This document shows, piece by piece, positions 1,811-21,303 of a stretch of 64,000 nt of DNA. The notes under the pieces were generated by a model, which saw nothing but the letters and a program-made list of their open reading frames with translations, was not told the origin of the DNA and did no database searches. Source of the stretch: Flavobacteriales bacterium. GTDB lineage: Bacteria > Bacteroidota > Bacteroidia > Flavobacteriales_F > PHOS-HE28. Positions within the stretch are counted from its first letter, which is position 1. Each line of letters opens with the position of its first letter. The translations under genes and the position numbers were made by a program. Where the stretch lies: the NCBI GenBank assembly GCA_017987115.1, contig JAGNUG010000005.1, positions 669 through 64,668 on the forward strand, read 5' to 3'.

Positions 1811-2884
1811 ATGAGAAGAATAACAATTATACTACTGACCATGCTGACTATGACAGCATACGGACAGACCAACAAAGAAAAAGCCTACGACCTTGGCATG
1901 AAAGCCATAAAAGAAATGGATGCTGGCAAAATCAGGGACGCAATAAAATTATTGGAGCAATCCAAAGAACTCGACCCTGACAATATTGACTACCCATACG
2001 AAATAGCCTATGCCCACTACCTTGACAAAAGCTACACAGACGCTATCAAAATCCTAAAAGGATTGACTAAGCACGATAAAGTAAATGATCGAATCTACCA
2101 AATGCTTGGAAACTGTTACGACATGGAAAAAAATCCGGACAAGGCCATAGAGACTTATGAAACTGGACTAAAATTCTATCCAAATTCTGGCATACTCTAC
2201 TTGGAAAGGGGAAACATGGAGTTTGTCAAAGAGGACTATAACAAAGCCCTTGGTTATTACGAGCAAGGCATTGAAGTGCAGCCAAAATTTTCTTCCAACT
2301 ACTATTGGGCAGCCAAAATCTTCATGAGTTCAACAGAGGAAGTTTGGGGACTATTATATGGAGAAATTTTCATGAACCTTGAACGTAACAGCAACAGGAC
2401 TGCAGAAATCAGCGAGCTACTATACAACACCTATAAAAGCCAAATAACTTTTACATCGGATACTTCAATGACCGTTAGTTTTTGCCAGCAAATGACAATG
2501 AACATTAACGAAATCTCGGAGGACAGGGAAATGAAACTTCCCTTCTGCATGATTTACGAGCCTACTTTACTATTGTCTGTAGCTTTTGCCAAATCAATTG
2601 ACATCAAATCGTTAGACGATATTAGAACAAGTTTTGTAGAGAACTATTACAAGATGGGGCACAACAAAACTCATCCAAACGCTCTATTTGATTATCAAAA
2701 GCAAATCATGGACAATGGACATTTAGAAGCATATAATCACTGGATTCTGATGAAAGGAGACGAAGACGCTTTTTCTACTTGGAATGACAGTAACAAGGAC
2801 AAATGGGACAGCTTTGTAGCTTGGTTTTCTGAAAATCCCATTGAAATATCCGACACTAACAGATTTTACAGTGGACAGTATTAA
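1811..2884 (+). CDS. Secreted TPR-repeat protein
   Basis: 357 aa with N-terminal signal peptide 'ILLTMLTMTAYGQ'. Several 34-aa TPR-like units in the first ~170 aa (e.g. 'AIKLLEQSKELDPDN', 'AIETYETGLKFYPNS', 'ALGYYEQGIEVQPKF'). Confidence 0.75.
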   Translation: MRRITIILLTMLTMTAYGQTNKEKAYDLGMKAIKEMDAGKIRDAIKLLEQSKELDPDNIDYPYEIAYAHYLDKSYTDAIKILKGLTKHDKVNDRIYQMLGNCYDMEKNPDKAIETYETGLKFYPNSGILYLERGNMEFVKEDYNKALGYYEQGIEVQPKFSSNYYWAAKIFMSSTEEVWGLLYGEIFMNLERNSNRTAEISELLYNTYKSQITFTSDTSMTVSFCQQMTMNINEISEDREMKLPFCMIYEPTLLLSVAFAKSIDIKSLDDIRTSFVENYYKMGHNKTHPNALFDYQKQIMDNGHLEAYNHWILMKGDEDAFSTWNDSNKDKWDSFVAWFSENPIEISDTNRFYSGQY

Positions 2885-2900
2885 AAGAATGAAAAAACTG

Positions 2901-2963
2901 GCGCTAACAAAACCTATACGCAATACCCTTCGGGACACTGCTCTTAGCCAAATCGTTAGCAGC
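2901..2963 (+). repeat. Short attC-like site (~63 bp)
   Basis: GCGCTAAC (2901-2908) ... GTTAGCA (2955-2961). The same right arm recurs in the hybrid site at 9657-9710. Confidence 0.65.
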
Positions 2964-3011
2964 AATGTAAAACGAGAGGATTTTTGTACCTAGGAGATAA
3001 CACGAACTAAA

Positions 3012-3338
3012 TTGAACGAAAAGGAAAACACAAACTGGTTTGACGAACTGACTGAGATTTTCGGTTGGATTCAAATCATGTTTTCCCCTACTCTAGTTGG
3101 ACTTGCCCTCGGTGGACTTTACTACTTGTACTCGCCAGACACTATCGGCAAGATCTTAGGGTCTACGATTGCCATTATCGGACTTATCATTGGAATAATT
3201 TGGGCGACTAAAGTCAAGAAGAAATACGGTACAATTTGGTTCATTTCAAGAAACATGGCGACACCAGAATTAGACACCAGAAACGACTCTACCGAAAACA
3301 AGAAAGCAACTAAAAACACTGCTGCCAACAAAGGCTAA
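3012..3338 (+). CDS. Small membrane protein (2 predicted TM helices)
   Basis: 108 aa from a TTG start. An ATG at 3078 would cut into the first hydrophobic helix. Helices 'FSPTLVGLALGGLYYLY' and 'STIAIIGLIIGIIWA'. Confidence 0.5.
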   Translation: MNEKENTNWFDELTEIFGWIQIMFSPTLVGLALGGLYYLYSPDTIGKILGSTIAIIGLIIGIIWATKVKKKYGTIWFISRNMATPELDTRNDSTENKKATKNTAANKG

Positions 3339-3388
3339 ACCACATGCCTCCAACCGTTGCGCGTTGCTTTAGCCAGACCGTTGTATCC
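3333..3388 (+). repeat. Short attC-like site
   Basis: GGCTAAAC (3333-3340) overlaps the stop codon. Internal inverted repeat GGCTAAA/TTTAGCC. R' GTTGTAT at 3380-3386. Confidence 0.5.
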
Positions 3389-3431
3389 AATAACATCAAG
3401 CGGCCCCCCACCCCCTACTCCACCACCACCA

Positions 3432-4103
3432 TCACTGCCCCATTGCAGAGCGTAGCGTGTAAATGTTCATCGGGTACGGGCCACCAATTGCCGGTGGCAA
3501 AAGGCCGGTGGCGTCGGGTACGGGGGCAGTAGTGCGGTTCGCAGAGGTATACGGCCACTTTATCCAAGAGACGTAAGCACGGCGTAACGGGCCAAATGAC
3601 ACGAGCCTTACGTGGCAAGCAGTTAAGTGCGCAGCACTGGCCAGTGGCTGTTCGGTTGGTGGTTGAGGCTTCTTGGTTCTTGGCTTTTTGGCTTGTGGTA
3701 GTAGGGCCAAGGGTTCTGGGTAGCATTGGCGCAAGAGCTGGCAGCGCAGTGCATTGGGCAATGCAAAGGCCTGGAACTGTTCGGTAGGCAATAGGCGCAG
3801 GTAATGAGGTGTCAGGTAGTTGTCCTCCACATGCTTTTTCCAGCTTTTGAACGCTTTCACCAATTCATCCGCACGGGATTGCTGCCCCTTAGGCAAGGCG
3901 GTTAGTTGTGTACGCACCTTAGTTTCTTCCTGCAAGAGGATACGCCGCAATGCCTTGGCCAATGCACGGGGTGGCACCAGCCGGCCGGCGCGGGGTTCGC
4001 AATAGCACAGGAATACTTCGTTGAGGGTGACCGTGACCTGCACAGTTGCAACAGCTCGCTTGCGGCATGGCACTTCAATGCCTATGCTCGCGCTCCTACT
4101 CAT
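3432..4103 (-). CDS. Hypothetical protein (candidate iteron-binding initiator or regulator)
   Basis: 223-aa ORF in the high-GC cassette, divergent from the FN3 gene, with the iteron array immediately upstream. The first ~130 aa look protein-like. The C-terminal part is Pro/Lys-rich, so the true 3' extent is uncertain. No family recognised. Confidence 0.45.
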   Translation of the reverse strand: MSRSASIGIEVPCRKRAVATVQVTVTLNEVFLCYCEPRAGRLVPPRALAKALRRILLQEETKVRTQLTALPKGQQSRADELVKAFKSWKKHVEDNYLTPHYLRLLPTEQFQAFALPNALRCQLLRQCYPEPLALLPQAKKPRTKKPQPPTEQPLASAAHLTACHVRLVSFGPLRRAYVSWIKWPYTSANRTTAPVPDATGLLPPAIGGPYPMNIYTLRSAMGQ

Positions 4104-4269
4104 GGGTAGGGTCGTATTTGTTCAGGTATGTGCCTAAACCCAGTACCATGGGCAGATGCGCTCTACCGGTTGCTTCTGCTTCCTTGCGCGTGCGTACCAT
4201 ACACGCTCTGTTGTGCGTGGTATGGAACACACATTCGAAGATCTGGCTGCTATCTGGATCGGGTCTGCT

Positions 4270-4540
4270 TGGAACATGCGCGTGTTACCGGTCATCGTGC
4301 GCATGTTGCATCCTATCACGGGCATTTCTCCCGCTATCATGCGCATGTTAGCACCTAACACGGGCATTTCTCCGCCTATCATGCGCATGTTACATCTTGT
4401 CACGAGCAGTTCTCGGGCTATCATGCGCATGTTGGATCCTAACTCGGGCATTTCTCCGCCTATCACGCGCATGTTAGCGGCTATAACGGGCATATCTTGG
4501 GCTATTATGCGCATGATGGAATGTATAACGCGCATGTATT
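4270..4540. repeat. Iteron-like tandem array: about 6.5 units of 42 bp
   Basis: The palindrome ATGCGCAT (or ACGCGCAT/GTGCGCAT) sits at 4298, 4339, 4381, 4423, 4465 and 4507, exactly 42 bp apart, with half-period copies near 4276 and 4528. Each unit also carries CACGGGCATTTCTCC, and a further copy of that motif lies at 4604-4618. Confidence 0.85.
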
Positions 4541-4660
4541 GATATTTCTTGTGGGTGCCATTTGTTAAGACTTTGGTAGAACCCGAAAAAATAAACGTCC
4601 TGTTCACGGGCATTTCATGGGTTTATTAACAATATTCGTTTTTTTCACATGTCACGGCCA
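4541..4660. promoter_or_regulatory. AT-rich tract next to the iterons (candidate unwinding element or promoter region)
   Basis: gatatttcttg...gaaaaaataaacg...gtttattaacaatattcgtttttttcac is clearly AT-rich inside an otherwise ~58% GC cassette. Confidence 0.3.
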
Positions 4661-4757
4661 TACTCTTTGCGGTTAAAGTCCTTGGCCAGCAACACAGCCG
4701 AGGCCAGAGACAAACGGACGCACTCGAAGTCGAACGGAACCTAAACAACGAACAACC

Positions 4758-5375
4758 ATGAAACTGATCAAAGCAGGAACAAGCGGCTTAAATGCCGTGA
4801 GCCTCATCGCAAAGGCGGAGTACGTGGAAGGCAAGATGAAGACCAATCTGAACTTCGCCACCCCGAACCCGGCTATCACTGAGGTTACCGCTGCACGGGA
4901 AGCATTGGTAACGGCCGTAGCGCAAGCTGAAAGCCGTTCCTTCGCCGACCTCGCAGTACGCAACGCCCAGACCGTGGTCCTTCGCACCTTACTGGTGAAC
5001 CTTGCACGCTATGTGAATAACGTAGCCCTGGGTGATGTGGACAAGGCCGTGAGTAGCGGTTTTGAGCCGGCCAAAAAGCCGGAGCCCAGCACCCACTTGG
5101 ACCCACCGGTAAAACTAGAGGCGCGCGTAAGCGACTTCGAGGGTAGCGTGGACCTCTTGTGGAAGCGCGTGGAGGATGCCCGCATGTACCAGGTGTACAT
5201 CAACGACGGCGACCCATCGGATGCCACCAAGTGGTCGATGGTAGCTGTTAGCAGTCGCACGCGTACCCGCATTACGGATCTGGTACCGGGTAAGTTCTAC
5301 TCGTTCCGCGTAACCGCCCTCGGTCGTATCGGGGAAGGTCCCGCGAGCGATGTGGTAAGTGGCCGCGCCGCGTAA
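4758..5375 (+). CDS. Fibronectin type III domain protein (helical N-terminal half + C-terminal FN3)
   Basis: 205 aa. The C-terminus 'LLWKRVEDARMYQVYIND...TRITDLVPGKFYSFRVTALGRIGEGPAS' matches the FN3 pattern (W, Y-x-V, L-x-PG-x-Y-x-F-R-V-x-A). High GC. Its last ~110 nt and the 230 nt downstream are the master copy of the class B repeat core. Confidence 0.7.
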   Translation: MKLIKAGTSGLNAVSLIAKAEYVEGKMKTNLNFATPNPAITEVTAAREALVTAVAQAESRSFADLAVRNAQTVVLRTLLVNLARYVNNVALGDVDKAVSSGFEPAKKPEPSTHLDPPVKLEARVSDFEGSVDLLWKRVEDARMYQVYINDGDPSDATKWSMVAVSSRTRTRITDLVPGKFYSFRVTALGRIGEGPASDVVSGRAA

Positions 5376-5603
5376 GCGACCCCACAACTTCTTCTTCACT
5401 AGCATCCGCCCCGGTCCCGCAAAGGCCGGGGCGGGGTGCGTTAAGGGGTGCGTATGAACCGGTGAAGTATCTATCTTGGTGGGCCGGTTGTAATAAAACG
5501 CTATTGGGCTTTACATGCCCCACTAGTGAACTAGTAACCACTCCAAGCACGAACCAAGTCGGGAGATGAACGCTGCTGTTGTTACAACCGACTAGTTAGA
5601 ACA
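5262..5603 (+). repeat. Master copy of the class B repeat core (FN3 3' end + terminator + attC-like right arm)
   Basis: Near-identical to the right-hand ~340 bp of the full-length B copies (B3 shares only the first ~220 bp). Ends ...caaccgactaG|TTAGAAC (R' at 5595-5601). Confidence 0.85.
5406..5434 (+). terminator. GC-rich hairpin downstream of the FN3 gene (also present in every B copy)
   Basis: CCGCCCCGG (5406-5414) pairs with CCGGGGCGG (5426-5434): a perfect 9-bp stem with an 11-nt loop. No U-tract, so intrinsic-terminator function is inferred only. Confidence 0.5.
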
Positions 5604-5612
5604 AATTTTACA

Positions 5613-6263
5613 ATGGAGCAGAAAGTGAAAGAAGCAGTCGAGCTATTGCTGAATCCAAAATCAGCGAAACGTGAGTCGGGAGCAAAAAGACTTAGGAAGC
5701 TTGAATCGATTGAATCAGGTCCTTACCTGGTTCAAGCATTAGAAAAAGAGATTGCGGATGTTCGAACTTGGTCTACCCAATATCATCTTATCCTTGCTAT
5801 TGGTCATTCACAGTATGAAGCAGCTCTGCCATTTCTCATGAAACTTGCCAAAGAGAATTTTGAAGCAACAATTTTGTATTCTGGACTGGGTGATTCAATT
5901 TTTCGACTTCTAAGTATTAGTCATACTGTAGATGATTCGTTAGAACAAGTCTATGCCTTTGATAATTATATTTTGACGAAGGGGGCTTTTAGAGCCCTTG
6001 CTCTTCTACATATTGTCCCTGATGATAGTACTATTTCGGAACTATTAAACAAAGCTAGTGACCCAAGAGCTATTGAGGCTGTAAAAGGTTATCCCAATGA
6101 CCAAACTGGATTGAGGCTCTGGGTAGCGGCGGCAAGTGCTGGCTGGAGAGAGGAGTTAAAATCGAAATTCTTGGATGACTGCAGTACGATTCAGGACGGT
6201 CGATTGACGTTAGCCGTAGAAAATTCCAGAAAAGGAAAATATGTAAAGTGGGGACCATATTAA
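5613..6263 (+). CDS. HEAT/ARM-like repeat protein
   Basis: 216 aa. 'NPKSAKRESGAKRLRKLESIESGPYLVQALE' and later helical pairs resemble HEAT_2-type repeats. AT-rich cassette ORF. Confidence 0.55.
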   Translation: MEQKVKEAVELLLNPKSAKRESGAKRLRKLESIESGPYLVQALEKEIADVRTWSTQYHLILAIGHSQYEAALPFLMKLAKENFEATILYSGLGDSIFRLLSISHTVDDSLEQVYAFDNYILTKGAFRALALLHIVPDDSTISELLNKASDPRAIEAVKGYPNDQTGLRLWVAAASAGWREELKSKFLDDCSTIQDGRLTLAVENSRKGKYVKWGPY

Positions 6264-6270
6264 ATGTAAC

Positions 6271-6398
6271 TTGCTCTAACATACGTTTGCCACAAGCCAC
6301 CCTCGTCCCGGTGACAACTCCCGTTGAAGCGTTGAACACTTCGTTCAGGAACAAGATCACGAAAGGCGGCCTGCGGCAAGCGCAGGCCCGTTAGCGGC
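6271..6398 (+). repeat. Class A attC-like site, copy 2
   Basis: TTGCTCTAAC...GCCACAAGCCACCC...GGCGGCCTGCGGCAAGCGCAGGCCC-GTTAGCG. R'' is complementary to the cassette start at 5596-5604 in 8 of 9 positions. Confidence 0.8.
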
Positions 6399-6423
6399 AC
6401 GCTAAAAACGACAACATACAATC

Positions 6424-6870
6424 ATGGAACTATTTGAATTTCCACAAAAAACAACTTGGGAAAAAAGAAATGCTTGGATTGAAAATGAAATCGAACAGAG
6501 TATGACAGGTGGAAGTTATTTGGTAAGTGACCATTCAACGGCATTATTTGCAGACTTACAAGCTTGCTATTGCATAGGCGCTTGGATTTCAGTAATTGTC
6601 CTTTCAATATCAATTATTGATTCGCATTTACGCGAAACTGAAGCTTTAAATGTGAAAGTCGGAACAGCCAAATTATTGGATGATTATTACTTCGGTAAGG
6701 ATGATATTAATTGGCTCAGGAAACTCAGAAATCGGTATGTTCATGTTGACATTGATAATCCAGCTCTAGAAATGAACCACCAATACTTAAATAGAAAACA
6801 GTTAGAAAGTGATGCGACTAGAGCTGTGAAAATGATAATTCAAGCTTTCTTTCAAAGCCCAGGAACATAA
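6424..6870 (+). CDS. Hypothetical protein with a HEPN-like Rx4H motif
   Basis: 148 aa. 'NWLRKLRNRYVHVD' contains R-N-x-x-x-H, the signature of several HEPN families, in a predicted helical context. Motif-level evidence only. Confidence 0.5.
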   Translation: MELFEFPQKTTWEKRNAWIENEIEQSMTGGSYLVSDHSTALFADLQACYCIGAWISVIVLSISIIDSHLRETEALNVKVGTAKLLDDYYFGKDDINWLRKLRNRYVHVDIDNPALEMNHQYLNRKQLESDATRAVKMIIQAFFQSPGT

Positions 6871-6881
6871 AACATTAAAAA

Positions 6882-7094
6882 ATGAAATATAGAATTGACG
6901 AGATAAATATTGGAGATGAAGTGATTTTTGAATCGACCTCTATCCAGAGCAATTATGACTTATATTGGAAAGTTATCGGAAAGAATAAAACTCAATTGAT
7001 GATAGAACTTAAAGAAATGGGACACGATGAAAATTGGACAATCGAAATATTTGAAGTCAAAGGAGTTCTACCGACAGGAAGAAGTGAAAAATGA
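6882..7094 (+). CDS. Small hypothetical protein (second gene of a two-gene cassette)
   Basis: 70 aa. Starts 11 nt after the preceding stop and lies in the same cassette. Confidence 0.45.
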   Translation: MKYRIDEINIGDEVIFESTSIQSNYDLYWKVIGKNKTQLMIELKEMGHDENWTIEIFEVKGVLPTGRSEK

Positions 7095-7100
7095 AAGCCA

Positions 7101-7600
7101 GCCGCTAATCGAGTAGGCGGCCCCGCCGCTGAATAGCGACGGGGTGCGCCTCGCACACCACTGTACCCTTCGGCTTCGCTCTGGGTAAACCAAGCGGGTT
7201 TCGCAGACAGTGGTTCGTTGAGGTCTGGAGCTACGTTCTGGCAGTGATCTTACATGGCTTCGTACCCGCATTACGGATCTGGTACCGGGCAAGTTCTACT
7301 CGTTCCGCGTAACCGCCCTCGGCCGTATCGGGGAAGGTCCCGCGAGCGATGTGGTAAGTGGCCGCGCCGCGTAAGCGACCCCGCAACTTCTTCTTCACTA
7401 GCATCCGCCCCGGTCCCGCAAAGGCCGGGGCGGGGTGCGTTCAGGGGGTGCGTATGAACCGGTGAAGTATCTATCTTGGTGGGCCGGTTGTTATAAAGTG
7501 CTATTGGGCTTTACATGCCCCACTAGTGAAATACAAACAACCCCAAGCACGAATCAAGTCCGGAAATAAACCCTACTGTTGTTACAACTGACTACCTTTG
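7101..7600 (+). repeat. Class B composite attC-like repeat, copy B1 (~500 bp)
   Basis: Starts GCCGCTAAT-CGAGTAGG, with R'' complementary to the cassette start at 6391-6398. Hairpins at 7116-7150 and 7164-7187, FN3 fragment at 7222-7374, hairpin at 7405-7433, then the right arm. R' is degenerate (actaCCTTTGG). Confidence 0.85.
7222..7374 (+). pseudogene. Start-less FN3 C-terminal gene fragment inside B1
   Basis: 50 sense codons plus TAA, directly after a conserved in-frame TGA. The last 36 codons differ from the FN3 gene (5265-5375) only by two synonymous GGT>GGC changes. Confidence 0.7.
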
Positions 7601-7668
7601 GGACTAATATCACTGATAAAAAAATGAAAGAACAAAATCAATAACATCTTACCTAAACAGTAAACATT

Positions 7669-7839
7669 ATGAACAAAAGAAAAATATTATTGATAATTTT
7701 AATTATCCTAAATTCATTAGTGCTAATGGGACAAATTTATCCCGAAGGAGCTCCTCCATTTGCAAGAATTGTGAACATAGTTTTCCTAGTTTCAAGTTTG
7801 GCGTTTTTTATTGCAATGACAATACAAAAACGTACTTAG
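7669..7839 (+). CDS. Small membrane protein (56 aa, below the ORF-track cutoff)
   Basis: ATG at 7669, MNKRKILLIILIILNSLVLMGQ...VNIVFLVSSLAFFIAMTIQKRT, with two hydrophobic helices. It is the only plausible ORF in the cassette between B1 and B2. Confidence 0.35.
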   Translation: MNKRKILLIILIILNSLVLMGQIYPEGAPPFARIVNIVFLVSSLAFFIAMTIQKRT

Positions 7840-7854
7840 ACAACAAGCCAGAAA

Positions 7855-8358
7855 TGCCAATCGAGTAGGCGGCCCCGCCGCTGAATAGCGAAGGGGTGCG
7901 CCTTTCACACCACTGTACCCTTCGGCTTCGCTCTGGGTAAACCAAGCGGGTCTCGTATACAGCGGTTCGTTAAGGTGTGGAGCTATTTTCTGGTAGTGAT
8001 CGAGCATGGCTTCGTAGCTGCATAACGGATCTGGTACCGGGCAAGTTCTACTCGTTCCGCGTAACCGCCCTCGGTCGTATCGGGGAAGCTTACACTGCGA
8101 GCGATGTGGTAAGTGGCCGCGCCGCGTAAGCGACCCCACAACTTCTTCTTCACTAGCATCCGCCCCGGTCCCGCAAAGGCCGGGGCGGGGTGCGTTAAGG
8201 GGCTGCGTGCGAACCAGTGAAGTATCTATCTTGGTGGGCCGGTTGTAATAAAGTGCTATTGGGCTTTACATACCCCAATAGTGAAATAGTAACCACTCCA
8301 AGCACACACCAAGTCCGGAAATAAACCCTACTGTTGTTACAACCGACTAGTTAGCGGC
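7855..8358 (+). repeat. Class B composite repeat, copy B2
   Basis: Starts TGCCAAT-CGAGTAGG and ends actaG|TTAGCGG (8350-8356). Variant with a TAA stop and a 3-nt in-frame insertion in the FN3 fragment. Confidence 0.85.
7974..8129 (+). pseudogene. Start-less FN3 C-terminal fragment inside B2
   Basis: 51 codons plus TAA. GP>AYT in-frame insertion, T>S, R>C, and synonymous changes. Confidence 0.65.
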
Positions 8359-8359
8359 A

Positions 8360-9268
8360 ATGCAAATGAGGACAAGCGTAGCCATATTGATACAGTTCCT
8401 GACGGTAGGCCTCGCCACTTCGCAGAACGACAAGACCAGTGAGCGAGAAACGCAGATCTTGAAAGACAATCGAGTAGCCATTAAGAGGACGTGGTCAACG
8501 ATCTACCAAGACAACGACAACGAGATTCAGATAGATAGAAATCTCCAGTTGTATGAACAGTTCGATAGGAATGGAAACATCATTCTTCGACTTCGATTCA
8601 ATAACGTCGGCGACACTTTAGAAAAGAACACGTTTGTCCGTAATGACAAAGGACAAGTATTCCGTGAGTATCGAGACTGCCTTGACACTTGCCTAGTTTG
8701 GTATTGGGAAAGCTCGTATGATCAAGGTAAACTTGACAATGCGACTGCATTCTCGAGAGACAGTTCTGTTGTCGCTTCTTCAAAATATTTCTACAATGAA
8801 CAGGGCCTTGTTTCGAAATATTACTCGAGCAGACGAGAGGAGACTGTGGTTTCGACTAGCCTTGACGATGGCCGTAGCGGAGATCCAATCACAAATTATC
8901 ACACCATATACGAGACAGATTACGATACTACAATTGTTGAATATTCAGGAGACACAATACGACACTCGTCAAATCATGAGTCACAATCTTCGCTTTATAC
9001 TGAGAAGTACAACGAGGATGGCTTCATGTTGGAAGAGTCAGCGCTGTATAATTCGAAACTTTTGAATTATACGGAACGTTATGAGTATGATAGCTTTGGG
9101 AACAGGGTAATTAGGCTTATAACCAGTAGCAATATGAATGAGCCATACTTAATGGAAAAGTATATCTACGATGCGCGTCATCTTATGGTGAAAATGGAAT
9201 ACTATCACACCAAATTGGATATACCTCAGGTGATTTCAGAATTCGAATATGAACTTTTGGACGAATAG
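8360..9268 (+). CDS. Secreted protein with YD/MORN-like short repeats
   Basis: 302 aa with signal peptide 'AILIQFLTVGLATSQ'. Recurrent 'Y-x-Y-D/N-x-x-G' units ('YFYNEQGLV', 'YEYDSFGNRV', 'EKYNEDGFM'). Confidence 0.6.
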   Translation: MQMRTSVAILIQFLTVGLATSQNDKTSERETQILKDNRVAIKRTWSTIYQDNDNEIQIDRNLQLYEQFDRNGNIILRLRFNNVGDTLEKNTFVRNDKGQVFREYRDCLDTCLVWYWESSYDQGKLDNATAFSRDSSVVASSKYFYNEQGLVSKYYSSRREETVVSTSLDDGRSGDPITNYHTIYETDYDTTIVEYSGDTIRHSSNHESQSSLYTEKYNEDGFMLEESALYNSKLLNYTERYEYDSFGNRVIRLITSSNMNEPYLMEKYIYDARHLMVKMEYYHTKLDIPQVISEFEYELLDE

Positions 9269-9276
9269 AACGCACT

Positions 9277-9710
9277 GCCGCTAATCGAGTAGGCGGCCCC
9301 GCCACTGAATAGCGACGGGGTGCGCCTCTCACACCACTGTACCCTTCGGCTTCGCTCTGGGTAAACCAAGCGGGTCTCTTATACAGCGGTTCGTTGAGGT
9401 GTTGAGCTGCTTTTAGGTAGTGATCGAGCATGGCTTCGTACCCGCGTCACGGATCTGGTACCGGGCAAGTTCTACTCGTTCCGCGTAACCGCCCTCGGTC
9501 GTATCGGGGAAGGTCCCGCGAGCGATGTGGTAAGTGGCCGTGCCGCGTAAGCGACCACGCAACTTCTTCTTCACTAGCATCCGCCCCGGCCCCCCAAAGG
9601 CCGGGGCGGGGTGCGTTTAGGGGCTGCGTGTGAACCGCTGAAGTATCTATCTTGGTGAACCTATACGCAATGCCCTTGGGGACACTGCGCATAGCCGAAA
9701 CGTTAGCGTG
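9277..9710 (+). repeat. Hybrid site B3: class B left part joined to the right arm of a short attC
   Basis: B-type sequence up to ...gaagtatctatcttggtg (9656), then aacctatacgcaatgcccttggggacactgcgc...cGTTAGCG, which is homologous to 2910-2961. R'' GCCGCTAA (9277-9284) is complementary to the cassette start at 8351-8358. Confidence 0.8.
9398..9550 (+). pseudogene. Start-less FN3 C-terminal fragment inside B3
   Basis: 50 codons plus TAA. I>V plus two synonymous changes in the conserved part. Confidence 0.65.
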
Positions 9711-9719
9711 CATGGCAAA

Positions 9720-10250
9720 ATGACGACAAGTGATTACAATATGTCTGACACCGACAACCAATTAGTCCTGACAATCAAGAGAAAACCAAACTGGCTCATT
9801 CTCTCTATTACTGGTTTGTGGACACTTGGCTGGCTCGGTATTACTGGGACAATTATTTACGGACTTGCGACCGACCCTGACAAACTTGACGGTGAAATTG
9901 CTCTTTTTATGACTTTCTTTTTTCTCGCTGGACTATTTGTACTCAAAATTTTCCTTTGGCATTTAAGAGGACAAGAAAAAATTACAATTGACGACAAAGA
10001 ATTTCGCATAGACAAAGTTGGGACTATCCTGACAATTCCGAGAAAATATGAAGTTGACCAAATCGACTACATTTCAAATACAGAAAGACCAACAACACCG
10101 AAATGGATAAAATTTTGGGGGCTTGGAGGCGGACAAATTGAATTTGTATACCTAGGACAGACTAAGTATTTCGGACAGACATTAAAAGTTAAGGAGGCGA
10201 CTAAAATAATTGATGAAATGAAAGAAAAATTAAAAGCCACGACACGCTGA
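9720..10250 (+). CDS. Membrane protein (2 TM helices)
   Basis: 176 aa from the first ATG (the ORF opens at GTG 9708). Helices 'WLILSITGLWTLGWLGITGTIIYGL' and 'IALFMTFFFLAGLFVLKIFLW'. Confidence 0.55.
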   Translation: MTTSDYNMSDTDNQLVLTIKRKPNWLILSITGLWTLGWLGITGTIIYGLATDPDKLDGEIALFMTFFFLAGLFVLKIFLWHLRGQEKITIDDKEFRIDKVGTILTIPRKYEVDQIDYISNTERPTTPKWIKFWGLGGGQIEFVYLGQTKYFGQTLKVKEATKIIDEMKEKLKATTR

Positions 10251-10745
10251 TCGAGTAGGCGGCCCCGCCGCTGAATAGCGACGGGGTGCGCCTCTCACAC
10301 CACTGTACCCTTCGGCTTCGCTCTGGGTAAACCAAGCGGGTCCCGCATACAACGGTTCGTTGAGGTCTGGAGCTACTTTCTGGTAGTGAATGCACACGGC
10401 TTCGTACCCGCATTACGGATCTGGTACCGGGCAAGTTCTACTCGTTCCGCGTAACCGCCCTCGGCCGTATCGGGGAAGGTCCCGCGAGTGATGTGGTGAG
10501 TGGCCGCGCCGCGTAAGCGACCACGCAACTTCTTCTTCACCAGCATCCGACCCGGTCCCACAAAGGCCGGGGCGGGGTGTGTTCAGGGGCTGCGTATGAA
10601 CCGGTGAAGTTTCTATCTTGGTGAGCCGGTTGATATAAAACGCTATTGGGCTTTACATGCCCCATTAGTGAACTAGAAACCACCCCAAGCACCAACCAAG
10701 TCCGGAAATAAACTCTACTGTTGTTACAACCGACTAGTTAGTGGT
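10243..10745 (+). repeat. Class B composite repeat, copy B4
   Basis: Starts CACGCTGAT-CGAGTAGG, complementary to the cassette start 9703-9710 (TTAGCGTG) in 7 of 8 positions. R'' overlaps the stop codon. Ends actaG|TTAGTGG. Confidence 0.85.
10364..10516 (+). pseudogene. Start-less FN3 C-terminal fragment inside B4
   Basis: 50 codons plus TAA. All four differences in the conserved 36 codons are synonymous (GGC, GGC, AGT, GTG). Confidence 0.65.
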
Positions 10746-10763
10746 AAGCGGATAACGAGCTAA

Positions 10764-12846: not shown

Positions 12847-13350
12847 GCTTATAATCGAGTAGGCGGCCCCACCGCTAAAATTTCAACGGGGTGCGCCTCG
12901 CACACCACTGTACCCCGCGTCTTCGCTCGGGGCAGGCCAAGCGGGTCCCGCAGACAGCGGTTCGTTGATGTGTGGAGCTACGTTCTGGTAGTGATCGTGC
13001 CTGGCTTCACACCCGCATTACGGATCTGGTACCGGGCAAGTTCTACTCGTTCCGCGTAACCGCCCTCGGTCGTATCGGGGAAGGTCCCGCGAGCGATGTG
13101 GTAAGTGGCCGTGCCGCGTAAGCGACCACGCAACTTCTTCTTCACTAGCATCCGCCCCGGTCCCATAAAGGCCGGGGCGGGGTGCGTTAAGGGGGTGCGT
13201 GTGAACCAGTGAAGTATCTATCTTGGTGGGCCGGTTGTAATAAAACGCTATTGGGCTTTACATGCCCCACTAGTGAACTAGTAACCACTCCAAGCACGAA
13301 CCAAGTCGGGAGATGAATGCTACTGTTGTTACAACCGACTGGTTGGCGCT
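12847..13350 (+). repeat. Class B composite repeat, copy B5
   Basis: Starts GCTTATAAT-CGAGTAGG, complementary to the cassette start 12203-12210 (TTCTAAGC) in 7 of 8 positions. Hairpin-2 variant TACCCCG...CGGGGCA (12911-12934). Ends actgG|TTGGCGC. Confidence 0.85.
12969..13121 (+). pseudogene. Start-less FN3 C-terminal fragment inside B5
   Basis: 50 codons plus TAA. The conserved part differs only by synonymous GGC and CGT. Confidence 0.65.
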
Positions 13351-13363
13351 AATTTGAAATAAT

Positions 13364-14208: not shown

Positions 14209-14710
14209 AGCGCTAATCGAGTAGGCGGCCCCGCCGCTGAATAGCGACGGGGTGCGCCTCTCACACCACTGTACCCCGCGTCTCCGCTCGGGGCAGGCCA
14301 AGCGGGTGGCGCATACAACGGTTCGTTGAGGTCTGGAGCTACGTTCTGGTAGTGAATGCATTCGGCTTCACACCCGCATTACGGATCTGGTACCGGGCAA
14401 GTTCTACTCGTTCCGCGTAACCGCCCTCGGCCGTATCGGGGAAGGTCCCGCGAGCGATGTGGTAAGTGGCCGCGCCGCGTAAGCGAAGACGCAACTTCTT
14501 CTTCACTAGCATTCGCCCCGGTCCCACAAAGGCCGGGGCGGGGTGCGTTAAGGGGGTGCGTGCGAACCACTGAAGTTTCTATCTTGGTGGGCCGGTTGTT
14601 ATAAAACGCTATTGGGCTTTACATGCCCCACTAGTGAACTAGAAACCACTCCAAGCACACACCAAGTCCGGAAATAAACCCTACTGTTGTTACAACCGAC
14701 TATTTATGCA
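14209..14710 (+). repeat. Class B composite repeat, copy B6
   Basis: Starts AGCGCTAAT-CGAGTAGG, complementary to the cassette start 13343-13350 in 7 of 8 positions. Shares the hairpin-2 variant with B5. R' reads t|TTATGCA (14703-14710). Confidence 0.85.
14330..14482 (+). pseudogene. Start-less FN3 C-terminal fragment inside B6
   Basis: 50 codons plus TAA. Two synonymous GGC changes in the conserved part. Confidence 0.65.
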
Positions 14711-18306: not shown

Positions 18307-18813
18307 TGCGCACGATCGAGTAGGCGGCCCCGCCGCTAATTAGCGACGGGGTGCGCCGCTCACACCACTGTACCCTTCGGCTTCGCTCTGGGTAAACCAA
18401 GCGGGTCTCGTATACAGCGGTTCGTTAAGGTGTGGAGCTTCGATGTGGTAGTGAATGCACACGGCTTCGTAGCCGCATAACGGATCTGGTACCGGGCAAG
18501 TTCTACTCGTTCCGCGTAACCGCCCTCGGTCGTATCGGGGAAGCTTACACTGCGAGCGATGTGGTAAGTGGCCGTGCCGCGTAAGCGACCACGCAACTTC
18601 TTCTTCACTAGCATCCGCCCCGGTCCCGCAAAGGCCGGGGCGGGGTGCGTTAAGGGGGTGCGTATGAACCGGTGAAGTTTCTATCTTGGTGGGCCGGTTG
18701 TTATCAAACGCTATTGGGCTTTACATGCCCCACTAGTGAACTAGAAACCACCCCAAGCACGAATCAAGTCCGGAAATGAATGCTACCGTTGTTACAACCG
18801 ACTAGTTGTCAGT
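18307..18813 (+). repeat. Class B composite repeat, copy B7
   Basis: Starts TGCGCACGAT-CGAGTAGG, complementary to the cassette start at 16897-16905 in 8 of 9 positions. Mosaic of B2-like features (TAA stop, AYT insertion) and a B4-like patch (gaatgcacacgg). Ends actaG|TTGTCAG. Confidence 0.85.
18429..18584 (+). pseudogene. Start-less FN3 C-terminal fragment inside B7
   Basis: 51 codons plus TAA. Same GP>AYT in-frame insertion as B2. Confidence 0.65.
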
Positions 18814-18819
18814 AATTAA

Positions 18820-19320
18820 ATGAGATTAATATTTAAAATATTAAAGCGGGTGTTGTTTGTAATAACCTTACAAGTGGTGACATTTAATTTAATTGGCAAA
18901 AATGTTCTTAACTATCTTGATTTGGAGATAAACCAAAATGCAATTGATCGAGATAGGACTATACAAATAAGAGATGGGCATTATTCGGCATGGCACTGTC
19001 TTGGTACAGATCCATTTCAATACACAAAGCTAGGTTTAGAGAGATTTAAATTAGCTCAAATATTGCAAGCTGATACAAGTAAAATCCAACTTTTCACATG
19101 TGACTCATCTTGCTTCATTGATGACATACCAAGACCGGATGGTAACTTACTTGATTACAACGTGCATGTTGGATCGTGGGAGGACTATTATAATTGTTTC
19201 ACAATATCAATATTCAAGATGCAAATAAGTCCAAATTATACCCATTGCAAAAGTACAAAGTACGTATGGCTCCTTTTTGGATGGATTAAATATAAGACAA
19301 TTGATTATACAGATAAATAA
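18820..19320 (+). CDS. Hypothetical protein with an N-terminal hydrophobic segment
   Basis: 166 aa. 'VLFVITLQVVTFNLIG' is a signal-anchor-like helix. Confidence 0.5.
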   Translation: MRLIFKILKRVLFVITLQVVTFNLIGKNVLNYLDLEINQNAIDRDRTIQIRDGHYSAWHCLGTDPFQYTKLGLERFKLAQILQADTSKIQLFTCDSSCFIDDIPRPDGNLLDYNVHVGSWEDYYNCFTISIFKMQISPNYTHCKSTKYVWLLFGWIKYKTIDYTDK

Positions 19321-20019: not shown

Positions 20020-21303
20020 ATGACACGAGTATTTTTCTTTTTGATATTTCTTGGACTACTAACCCAATGCAAGACAAAGGAGGAAGCCATGACTATGCCT
20101 GCCGAGTGGGAAAAACAAGACGCCGTTCTGCTAACATATACAGAAGACCCAAACGACTCACTTACGTCCTTTGGAGTTCGCTCGACCTGCGACGAATTAA
20201 TTGATGTAATTGCGAAAAGAATGAAAATCTACGTATTGATCAACGAAGACTGGAATTCAGACTCTTTAACCAGCATTTTTAATGATCGAGGCTTTAACAC
20301 TAATAATATTGAGTTGATCAAAGTAAATGAATTGTTCTCAATGGGGGTAGCTCGTGACTATGGGCCACTCGTGATTAGAAATCAAAGTGGACAAAGAAAG
20401 CTTCTTAAATTCAACTGGGACTACGTCGGGGCGGATATGCTTGATCCTGATACAAGCTGGACAAATTGGAAAAACGAAGTCCGCAGAAAATATTTTGAGC
20501 AGATAAGTAAACTACTTAAAATGGACATTGTTGAGTCGGAGTTAACTATTGAAGGAGGAGAGATTGAACTCAATGGACAAGGCACAGCGCTTTTGGTAGA
20601 ATCATTTACAAAACCAAGACATCCAAAAATGGACATTGGTAAGTTTGGAAGTTCATTAGAACTTTCACTAGGAGTGTCAAACATTATCTGGCTAAAAGAA
20701 GGCATTGCTGAAGACCCTTCTAGTCTTCAATCATACGTCATAAGCAAAAACATCTATGGTTTTGGCGTAGGCGGCCATGTTGACGAGTTCGCAAGATTTG
20801 CCGACTCAAACACGATTTTACTGACTGTTCCCGACTCTGTCGAAGCTACCATGGATCCGGTAAAAAAAATCAACTATGAGAGAATGAATAGAAACTTTGA
20901 TATTCTTTCAAACTCAAAAGATCAAAATGGAGATACCTTCAAGATAATCAAAGTCCCAATGCCTGACATCTTAGCGGATACATTCGTTATTGACACTACA
21001 AGAAATCAAAGACTGCAAATTAGGAGTATAATGAGAAAGAACCCACACTTGGAACAAGGGGACACCATACATTTTCTTCCCGCAGTTAGTTATTTGAACT
21101 ATATCGTTCTGAATGACATAGTAATCATTCCAAAATACTGGGTACAAGGGTTTCCGGAAAGTACAAAAAGGAAAGATGATGAAGTTAAAGAACTGTTTCA
21201 AAGTCTTTATCCCAAAAAAGATATTGTGCAACTTAATCCTTTAGGACTTAACTATGCAGGAGGTGGATTTCATTGTTGGACACAGCAGATATCATATAAC
21301 TAA
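20020..21303 (+). CDS. Agmatine deiminase / Porphyromonas-type peptidyl-arginine deiminase family lipoprotein
   Basis: 427 aa. N-terminal 'PAEWEKQDAVLLTY' and C-terminal 'GGGFHCWTQQ' (catalytic Cys) match the family signature. Lipobox 'LGLLTQCK'. Last cassette of the array. Confidence 0.8.
   Translation: MTRVFFFLIFLGLLTQCKTKEEAMTMPAEWEKQDAVLLTYTEDPNDSLTSFGVRSTCDELIDVIAKRMKIYVLINEDWNSDSLTSIFNDRGFNTNNIELIKVNELFSMGVARDYGPLVIRNQSGQRKLLKFNWDYVGADMLDPDTSWTNWKNEVRRKYFEQISKLLKMDIVESELTIEGGEIELNGQGTALLVESFTKPRHPKMDIGKFGSSLELSLGVSNIIWLKEGIAEDPSSLQSYVISKNIYGFGVGGHVDEFARFADSNTILLTVPDSVEATMDPVKKINYERMNRNFDILSNSKDQNGDTFKIIKVPMPDILADTFVIDTTRNQRLQIRSIMRKNPHLEQGDTIHFLPAVSYLNYIVLNDIVIIPKYWVQGFPESTKRKDDEVKELFQSLYPKKDIVQLNPLGLNYAGGGFHCWTQQISYN

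Follow-up and report, generated by a model that had tools for sequence, protein, structure and literature searches.

The first ~21 kb of a 64,000-nucleotide stretch of DNA from a Flavobacteriales bacterium (assembly GCA_017987115.1, contig JAGNUG010000005.1, positions 669 to 64,668; hereafter the window) form a genuine attC cluster, made up of A repeats of ~115 bp and of short attCs, in both of which the R'' pairs with the first bases of the respective cassette. Within this array, two G/TT crossover points (3380/3381 and 5595/5596, the slash marking the point of exchange) delimit a unit whose junctions, G(3380)/TTGTATCC on the left and G(5595)/TTAGAAC on the right, are as first read. The unit carries a divergent gene on the minus strand, an intergenic region of 654 bp (4104-4757) with a phased repeat array and an AT-richer tract, and a plus-strand gene coding for a protein with a fibronectin type III (FN3) domain (Table 1). 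This layout had been recognized in the original prediction, made from the sequence alone, which saw in the unit a small replicon and the source of a repeat, B, that recurs in the cluster. The compositional contrast with the neighbours is real, at a lower value than the 58% GC first estimated: positions 3381-5595 contain 54.9% GC (divergent gene region 56.6%, intergenic region 49.5%, FN3 gene 58.6%, tail 54.5%), compared with 29-42% in the cassettes nearby and 49% in the chromosomal flank.

Table 1. Features of the unit, its junctions and the B repeats, in window coordinates; L001 is a related locus in another genome
Feature	Position	Strand	Basis or remark
Short attC (~62 bp) of the preceding cassette (108-aa membrane protein)	3319..3380	+	Crossover G(3380)/TT at its end
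30-bp junction segment TTGTATCCAATAACATCAAGCGGCCCCCCA between crossover point and module	3381..3410	.	L001 homology begins only at ~3411
Divergent gene, uncharacterised narrow family, 229 codons if intact	3415..4103	-	tblastn of relatives, DNA alignment with L001
Repeat array, ~13 units, strict 21-bp register	4273..4540	+	Tandem Repeats Finder (TRF), register reading
Probable FN3 promoter and leader	4541..4757	+	11-locus alignment, AT profile
FN3 gene, intact, 205 aa	4758..5375	+	Pfam fn3 (PF00041), 1.2e-7, residues 117-202
Segment common to unit and B: FN3 codons 169-205, hairpin, flank, attC remainder	5262..5599	+	92-95% identity to seven places
GC-rich hairpin CCGCCCCGG / CCGGGGCGG, 3' of the FN3 stop	5406..5434	+	Read from sequence; same place in other loci
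Remainder of a ~115-bp attC, L''...L'-R' (CGGTTGTAA...TTACAACCGACTAG/TT), without R''	5484..5595	+	Internal 9-bp complementarity; crossover point common to all B copies
B repeat, example copy	7087..7594	+	Intron 3' stump at ~7108-7272 on the minus strand
Other B copies	7845-8360, 9277-9657, 10226-10747, 12852-13352, 14211-14706, 18314-18820	+	Seven copies in total

The FN3 gene is the sole full-length copy in the window, as had been claimed; seven other places hold codons ~165/169-205. We found 72 homologues of the protein, at 42-85% identity and nearly all of ~205 aa, and it is the best conserved component of the module described below. An AlphaFold2 model (predicted local distance difference test, pLDDT, 92.8) predicts an N-terminal three-helix domain followed by the C-terminal FN3 domain. 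The Foldseek matches of this model were confined to generic FN3 domains, with no neighbour for the N-terminal three-helix domain; outside the FN3 domain, the protein matched no described family. The hairpin 3' of the gene is, from its sequence, a probable terminator, albeit one that has no T-run.

The divergent gene had been described as a 223-aa open reading frame (ORF) at 3432-4103. A minus-strand gene is indeed present, but not in that frame and extent. In tblastn searches, relatives match two frames of the window, and it is the other frame, at 3415-3726, that encodes the conserved C-terminus of the family (PVTPCLRLLDKVAVYL..PHYCPRT..RPFATGNWWP...VVVE). Compared by DNA alignment with L001, which is 94.7% identical, the window lacks one T near 3599/3600, resulting in a frameshift, and the 223-aa ORF is out of frame beyond about residue 168. 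The gene of the window is thus either a pseudogene or the carrier of an assembly error. A word-based search with the 223-aa ORF returned one close relative only; nevertheless, about 20 of the 27 related loci have a minus-strand ORF of 175-230 aa at the equivalent position. The encoded proteins, likewise of 175-230 aa, fall into two subfamilies (35-50% amino-acid identity within each) that have an N-terminal region of ~57 residues in common (hhalign probability 78%, E = 1.8e-5), and the family counts 35 representatives among 1.84 billion proteins. Because the relatives show an excess at the third codon position (e.g., 30/20/70), we consider the divergent ORF a real coding gene.

The intergenic region contains the repeats that had been read as iterons of 42 bp. 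The array stands, yet its true register is 21 bp: two unit types, ATCATGCGCATGTTAGCACCT and ATCACGGGCATTTCTCCGCCT, alternate in it, and both have a short dyad core. TRF reports a period of 42 (5.3 copies, 4294-4515, score 251) with a sub-period of 21 bp. The core motif ATCATGCGCATGTTA, with up to 3 mismatches allowed, has 15 matches in the window, 13 of them in the array and 2 elsewhere, against a chance expectation of 2.5. Between array and FN3 start, an alignment of 11 loci reveals conserved blocks, which in the window read TTGTTAA, TTTATTAACAA, TTTGCGGTTAAA and a leader of ~70 nt, and which across loci take the form TTGTTAA, GTTnTCAACAA, TTTnCGGTTnAA and the leader. A reading of the TTGTTAA box as sigma-54-like was dropped, the -24 GG and -12 GC elements not being conserved. 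The AT-richest 40 bp of the window also lie here (4613-4652, 0.75 AT). Because the AT peak over 40 bp is 0.47-0.68 in 17 related loci, this tract is specific to the window and not conserved. The ~70-90 nt 5' of the FN3 start (4666-4757 in the window, with counterparts in 10 loci; GCCGAGGCCAGAG...CACTCGAAG.CGGACGG) are conserved above most of the intergenic region. This stretch, which has no Rfam match, may be a structured leader. Rfam gave no match in the window at the gathering threshold, nor in 3300-8400 at the E-value threshold, and no tRNA genes were found in the window.

The same arrangement recurs well beyond this cluster. Scanning one genome per species, we found 27 loci with the module, all in Flavobacteriales metagenome-assembled genomes of about 59-61% GC, five of which have two loci. 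These loci lie in chromosomal contigs, some of them 0.5-2.4 Mb long. Most of those examined show the divergent gene, 12-17 units in a 21-bp register, ~220-300 bp with the conserved blocks, the FN3 gene and the GC-rich hairpin; a few (L012, L017, L018) have a weak or degenerate array. The repeat sequence varies by locus (ATGCGCAT, TTGCGCAA, TTCCC-N4-GGGAA and TGTACA cores), and the 21-bp register and short palindromic cores are kept. In the window, the module extends from the stop codon of the divergent gene (~3411-3415) to ~80 nt beyond the FN3 stop (~5455). As this layout is the same in 27 loci, the module is a conserved chromosomal one and not an integron invention, and, by sequence comparison, the unit is a copy of this two-gene module, whose native setting is the chromosomes of higher-GC Flavobacteriales. 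A literature search on the module found no description of it.

The genes that flank the module are unrelated among loci and include restriction-modification, STAND-type NTPase, HNH, PemK and GIY-YIG genes and genes for proteins secreted by the type IX secretion system (T9SS). Such unrelated, often defence-rich contexts, the multiple copies in a genome and the sharp module boundaries, at the divergent-gene stop and ~80 nt past the FN3 stop, would be expected if the module were a small mobile element, its divergent protein a novel recombinase or transposase and the repeats the binding sites of that enzyme; in L004, the module is moreover bracketed by 51-nt repeats from an HNH gene tail. We give this idea very little credence. 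We saw no inverted repeats at the termini and no target duplications, the repeats are internal rather than terminal, and neither a catalytic motif nor a family match was found in the protein. Furthermore, where a genome has several copies, these are diverged paralogues (FN3 identity 47-59%) and not products of recent transposition.

Three of these loci have features of their own. In L004, which lies on the same contig as L002, the 51-nt sequence occurs four times (4689-4739, 6723-6773, 7329-7379 and 10168-10218); the copies stem from an HNH_2 gene, of which they repeat the 3' end (...EYLEWHR...), each contains an imperfect hairpin, and they flank the FN3 module and neighbouring genes, which looks like repeated insertion of gene blocks at the HNH_2 gene tail. 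L035 has, besides its 21-bp array at 9477-9742, at least ~7 tandem repeats of 54 bp past the 3' end of the divergent gene (8162-8647). L001, from a close relative of the genome studied here, has the left chromosomal flank (93% identity) and the module (94.7%) in common with the window, and the DNA between them differs: where the window has four cassettes, L001 has 7.4 kb (1897-9294) with N6/N4 methylase, HATPase_c_3 and other genes. The L001 contig stops exactly at the start of the B homology.

How, then, is a chromosomal module held in an attC array? On its left, the unit adjoins the short attC of the preceding cassette, whose R'' (GCTGCCAAC) pairs with the cassette start TTAGCAGC at 2966 and which can be aligned with further short attCs at 2911 and 9658. 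The junction segment 3381..3410 had no significant match to intron sequence, and a search of this junction, of that in L001 and of 200-470 for remnants of the intron returned only chance 7-10-mers. On its right, the unit ends in a mere attC remainder, the final 104 bp of which are also found at 459-562. The cassette-specific R'' for which the original prediction had found no convincing candidate is indeed lacking: no GGATACAA-type site is suitably placed, none is complementary to TTGTATCC, and the left arm of B is absent from the unit. The doubt then voiced about its status as a normal cassette is borne out, since a unit that has an L''-to-R' remainder and no R'' is not a canonical cassette and would not be excised as a circle of its own. 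It resembles a member of a cluster of attC sites lacking integron-integrases (CALIN) in lying between two G/TT crossovers, and the other members of its array do have genuine attCs, with an R'' that matches. It differs from such a cassette in its two divergent genes with their own regulatory region, its half attC without R'', and a composition and homologues that point to a chromosomal module of other Flavobacteriales.

The ends of the cluster can be described briefly. Its left end is the 3' end of a gene for a T9SS-sorted protein. The array starts with the last 104 bp of a B-type attC remainder (459-562), preceded by ~250 bp of GC-rich non-coding DNA (211-458) that had no match to intron, FN3 or related loci. 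The last plus-strand gene past the final A-type attC (20020-21303) belongs to the Porphyromonas-type peptidyl-arginine deiminase family and is either the terminal cassette or the first core gene. No integrase was detected at the left end of the array or among ten ORFs of 326-470 aa scanned in 25103-58717; the ORFs to the right of the array include folD and ffh, and none of those scanned is an integrase.

As to what the module does, its architecture and its conserved promoter- and leader-like blocks suggest regulation of the FN3 gene as the most likely function, with the divergent protein as a coat on the phased array. The ~200-aa protein would be a sequence-specific DNA binder that covers its own array of 12-17 dyad-cored sites, spaced by exactly two helical turns, and the resulting nucleoprotein structure would control the FN3 promoter just downstream and probably the promoter of the divergent gene as well. 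With the divergent protein frameshifted, this control may be lost in the window.

Arrays of this kind, with many ~20-bp sites in two-helical-turn phasing and the gene of the presumed binder adjacent, are also a feature of iteron origins (pSC101, F, P1, lambda ori) and of the parC/ParR and omega arrays. The original prediction was that the unit is an integrated or excisable mini-replicon, in which the divergent protein would be the initiator acting on iterons, the AT tract the unwinding element, and the excised circle would replicate. The geometry fits iteron origins well: the gene is followed by ~13 repeats at 21-bp spacing and then by the AT-richest 40 bp (75% AT), and phased direct repeats in the range of ~17-22 bp beside a candidate initiator gene, as in theta replicons, are what 4273-4540 contains. 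Dyad-cored iterons exist in lambdoid origins. Moreover, array sequences differ between co-resident copies, as incompatibility-type specificity would predict, a divergence seen with iteron origins and with repeat-array centromeres or operators alike. A replicon is nonetheless highly improbable. The divergent protein is unlike any Rep family or solved structure, and in the window this candidate initiator is frameshifted. There is no DnaA box (TTATCCACA-like site) in 4104-4757, and the AT tract is not conserved across the related loci. These are chromosomal, with two copies in several genomes, and no circular contigs were seen among those checked: seven contigs of 1-7.6 kb, including FN3 contigs of 2.0-2.4 kb, enter unrelated flanking genes and have no terminal overlap. 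The most conserved part of the module is the FN3 gene, which is irrelevant for replication, and a unit without R'' would not leave the array as its own circle.

A centromere-like or chromosome-anchoring element is another conceivable use of such an array. The protein would coat it as ParR coats parC or omega its heptads, and the FN3 protein would be a partner or adaptor. With 12-17 dyad-cored sites on one helical face, 5' of an operon-like gene, the module resembles the centromeres of type II and type Ib partition systems. We consider this very unlikely, since no gene for a ParA, ParM or TubZ-type NTPase adjoins the module (called genes and Pfam matches in L001, L002 and L030-L035), the protein is larger than the ribbon-helix-helix centromere binders with no such fold predicted, and the loci are chromosomal and multi-copy. 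Compared with iteron origins and centromeres taken together, the module lacks homology to Rep, O, ParR and omega as well as DnaA boxes or an NTPase partner; it is chromosomal, its array is longer (12-17 units), and its conserved cargo is the FN3 protein. Regulation of the FN3 gene by a protein coating the array is the function that we prefer.

The second part of the problem is B, which had been taken for an attC-like repeat shed by the unit. Its length is ~500 bp rather than 338 bp, and the first ~170-186 bp, which are absent from the unit, proved to hold a stump of a group II intron. Each B opens with the R'' of the cassette itself and continues with the minus-strand 3' stump of the intron; FN3 codons 168-205 follow, together with the hairpin and a short stretch of flank, and the attC remainder (CGGTTGTAA...TTACAACCGACTAG/TT) closes the repeat. 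A hidden Markov model of the FN3 family detected no homology upstream of codon ~165 in B, where stop codons occur. In 6 of 7 B copies checked, the sequence that precedes the stump can pair with the opening bases of the cassette concerned, so the B-ended sequences are real cassette ends.

The origin of the left part is apparent from metagenomes. The left arm TCGAGTAGGCGGCCCCGCCGC... (B positions ~20-186) was found in 67 metagenome loci, in none of which the homology reaches the FN3 part. In one of them, L044, this sequence runs, on the minus strand, into a 438-aa reverse transcriptase (RT)/maturase ORF (RVT_1, GIIM) accompanied by a group II ribozyme (RF02001, 125 bits). At each of the seven B copies, RT residues 410-434 can be recognized, likewise on the minus strand. 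A flank logo of ...GC...TAA directly before the insertion point is common to 56 distinct insertion sites, and full-length intron copies are followed by classical attC remainders ending in ...CG/TTAGC. Group IIC-attC introns are inserted in the bottom strand of attCs, opposite to cassette transcription, between a gene and its attC (PMC3001079, PMC7923331). On these comparisons, we identify the left part of B as the 3' stump of an intron of group IIC-attC type. As with S.ma.I2-type members of that group, the stump lies on the bottom strand, against cassette transcription and directly after R'' (...TAA), and the same lineage, with an RT/maturase that has no endonuclease domain, occurs at full length in metagenome attCs. 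Unlike in those introns, only the last ~165-186 nt are left in B, the interior having been replaced by the gene tail through microhomology. The stump/FN3 junction shows the microhomology CGTA[G/C]CCGC (CGTAGCCGC in the intron, CGTACCCGC in FN3). No complete intron is present in the window, with neither a ribozyme match nor RT sequence beyond the stump.

The insert occupies the slot normal for a group IIC-attC intron, between R'' and the rest of the attC. When the bottom strand of the whole B was folded, no end-to-end attC fold was obtained (z = -1.5), as fits an interrupted site. Since the insert parts R'' from L'', B-type sites have probably lost the ability to recombine. The copy at 9277-9657 has the usual stump, FN3 tail and hairpin, and its remainder is of the short attC type (as in 2911-2965), the join lying within a few nt of the intron slot. 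The 67 metagenome loci (L041-L107) come from activated sludge and other metagenomes, in which the intron lineage is widespread and nearly always follows the ...TAA of an attC R''. The intron of L044 itself lies ~150 nt beyond the terminator hairpin that follows an acyl-CoA dehydrogenase gene and not in a recognisable attC, and variants within the set differ in the 3' region by insertions or deletions of 25 nt.

As a source of the FN3-derived part of B, the unit is the best candidate. It has the only complete gene, and over the common 338 bp it differs from the consensus at 10 positions, compared with 16-25 for the B copies; its position nearest to the consensus fits such a source. The following sequence of events would account for what is seen. 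A module from, or related to, the higher-GC Flavobacteriales would have become linked to the remainder of an attC. The first B would stem from a single crossover, at a microhomology, in which the FN3 gene of the unit recombined with an attC occupied by the intron; this B may then have spread to other intron-occupied attCs by recombination in the stump on the left and in the common attC remainder on the right. Spread by this route would explain why each B copy has an R'' of its own.

It is also conceivable that the FN3 tail of B, perhaps along with the unit in its entirety, reached the attC slot as cDNA, made when the intron RT, during retrohoming, switched template by microhomology (at RT codon ~410) from the intron RNA to a different RNA. 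The stump always begins at the 3' end of the intron, where target-primed reverse transcription starts, in two attC types, the insert departs from the intron slot by no more than about 5 nt, and the intron/FN3 junction shows microhomology at 8 of 10 nt. We hold a template switch to be unlikely, as it requires an antisense transcript of the FN3 3' region and a single microhomology crossover at the DNA level gives the same junction; one breakpoint is common to all seven stumps, so there is only one event to explain. A crossover between DNA molecules is the origin that we prefer for the first B.

Among known systems, B is close to the proposal of Leon and Roy that group IIC-attC introns join genes to attC sites, cited here after PMC3001079 and PMC7923331. 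A non-cassette gene with a terminator-like hairpin, joined to an attC at the intron slot, is the sort of product to be expected from it. The array departs from this scheme in showing no clean homologous exchange and splicing and no contiguous R''-L'', and in having the composite in seven cassettes.

Taken together, the best explanation is that the unit is a captured two-gene module on an attC remainder, that its divergent protein is an array-coating regulator, and that B is an intron-bearing hybrid attC. We regard this combination as reasonably probable, and several observations count against it. The divergent protein gave no match in Pfam, NCBIfam, PADLOC, PHROGs or PDB sequences, and its family members none of note in PADLOC, NCBIfam and Pfam. 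Structure prediction, which had been proposed as a check for a winged-helix or Rep initiator, returned an unreliable AlphaFold2 model (pLDDT 50), and neither a DNA-binding fold nor a family could be assigned to the protein. The repeats of L006, whose protein belongs to subfamily 2, resemble those of the window, whose protein belongs to subfamily 1, so the co-variation of protein and sites is not clean. The frameshift near 3599/3600 could be an assembly error. Neither the left junction (3381-3410) nor the origin of the right weld (about 5460-5487) is explained by our account. Finally, the insert at 9277-9657 sits in a different attC type, which makes recombination through a shared remainder inapplicable there.

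What this cluster may mean goes beyond the single unit. No support was found for a cassette that replicates itself, the result that would have stood out. The module itself is an unannotated conserved unit of Flavobacteriales, in which a putative DNA-associated protein and an FN3 protein go together with 12-17 phased sites. The way in which genes acquire an attC is a long-open question about integrons, for which, to our knowledge, group IIC-attC introns are the sole concrete proposal, with little evidence from nature. Here, the FN3 gene and its hairpin are welded to an attC remainder within a few nt of the intron homing slot. It is tempting to see in the unit and the seven B repeats snapshots of a chromosomal gene attaching to an attC by way of a group IIC-attC intron, and in the module a new protein-coated superstructure of 21-bp sites; we offer this wider view tentatively, as a possibility that we do not ourselves hold to be the likelier one. 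The array offers a datable series, with an intact foreign module on an attC remainder, a truncated derivative with an intron stump, and the spread of the latter to seven cassettes. The hybrid attC family ties a group IIC-attC intron to the capture of the tail of a non-cassette gene and, if the wider view is true, would provide field evidence for intron-assisted cassette genesis.

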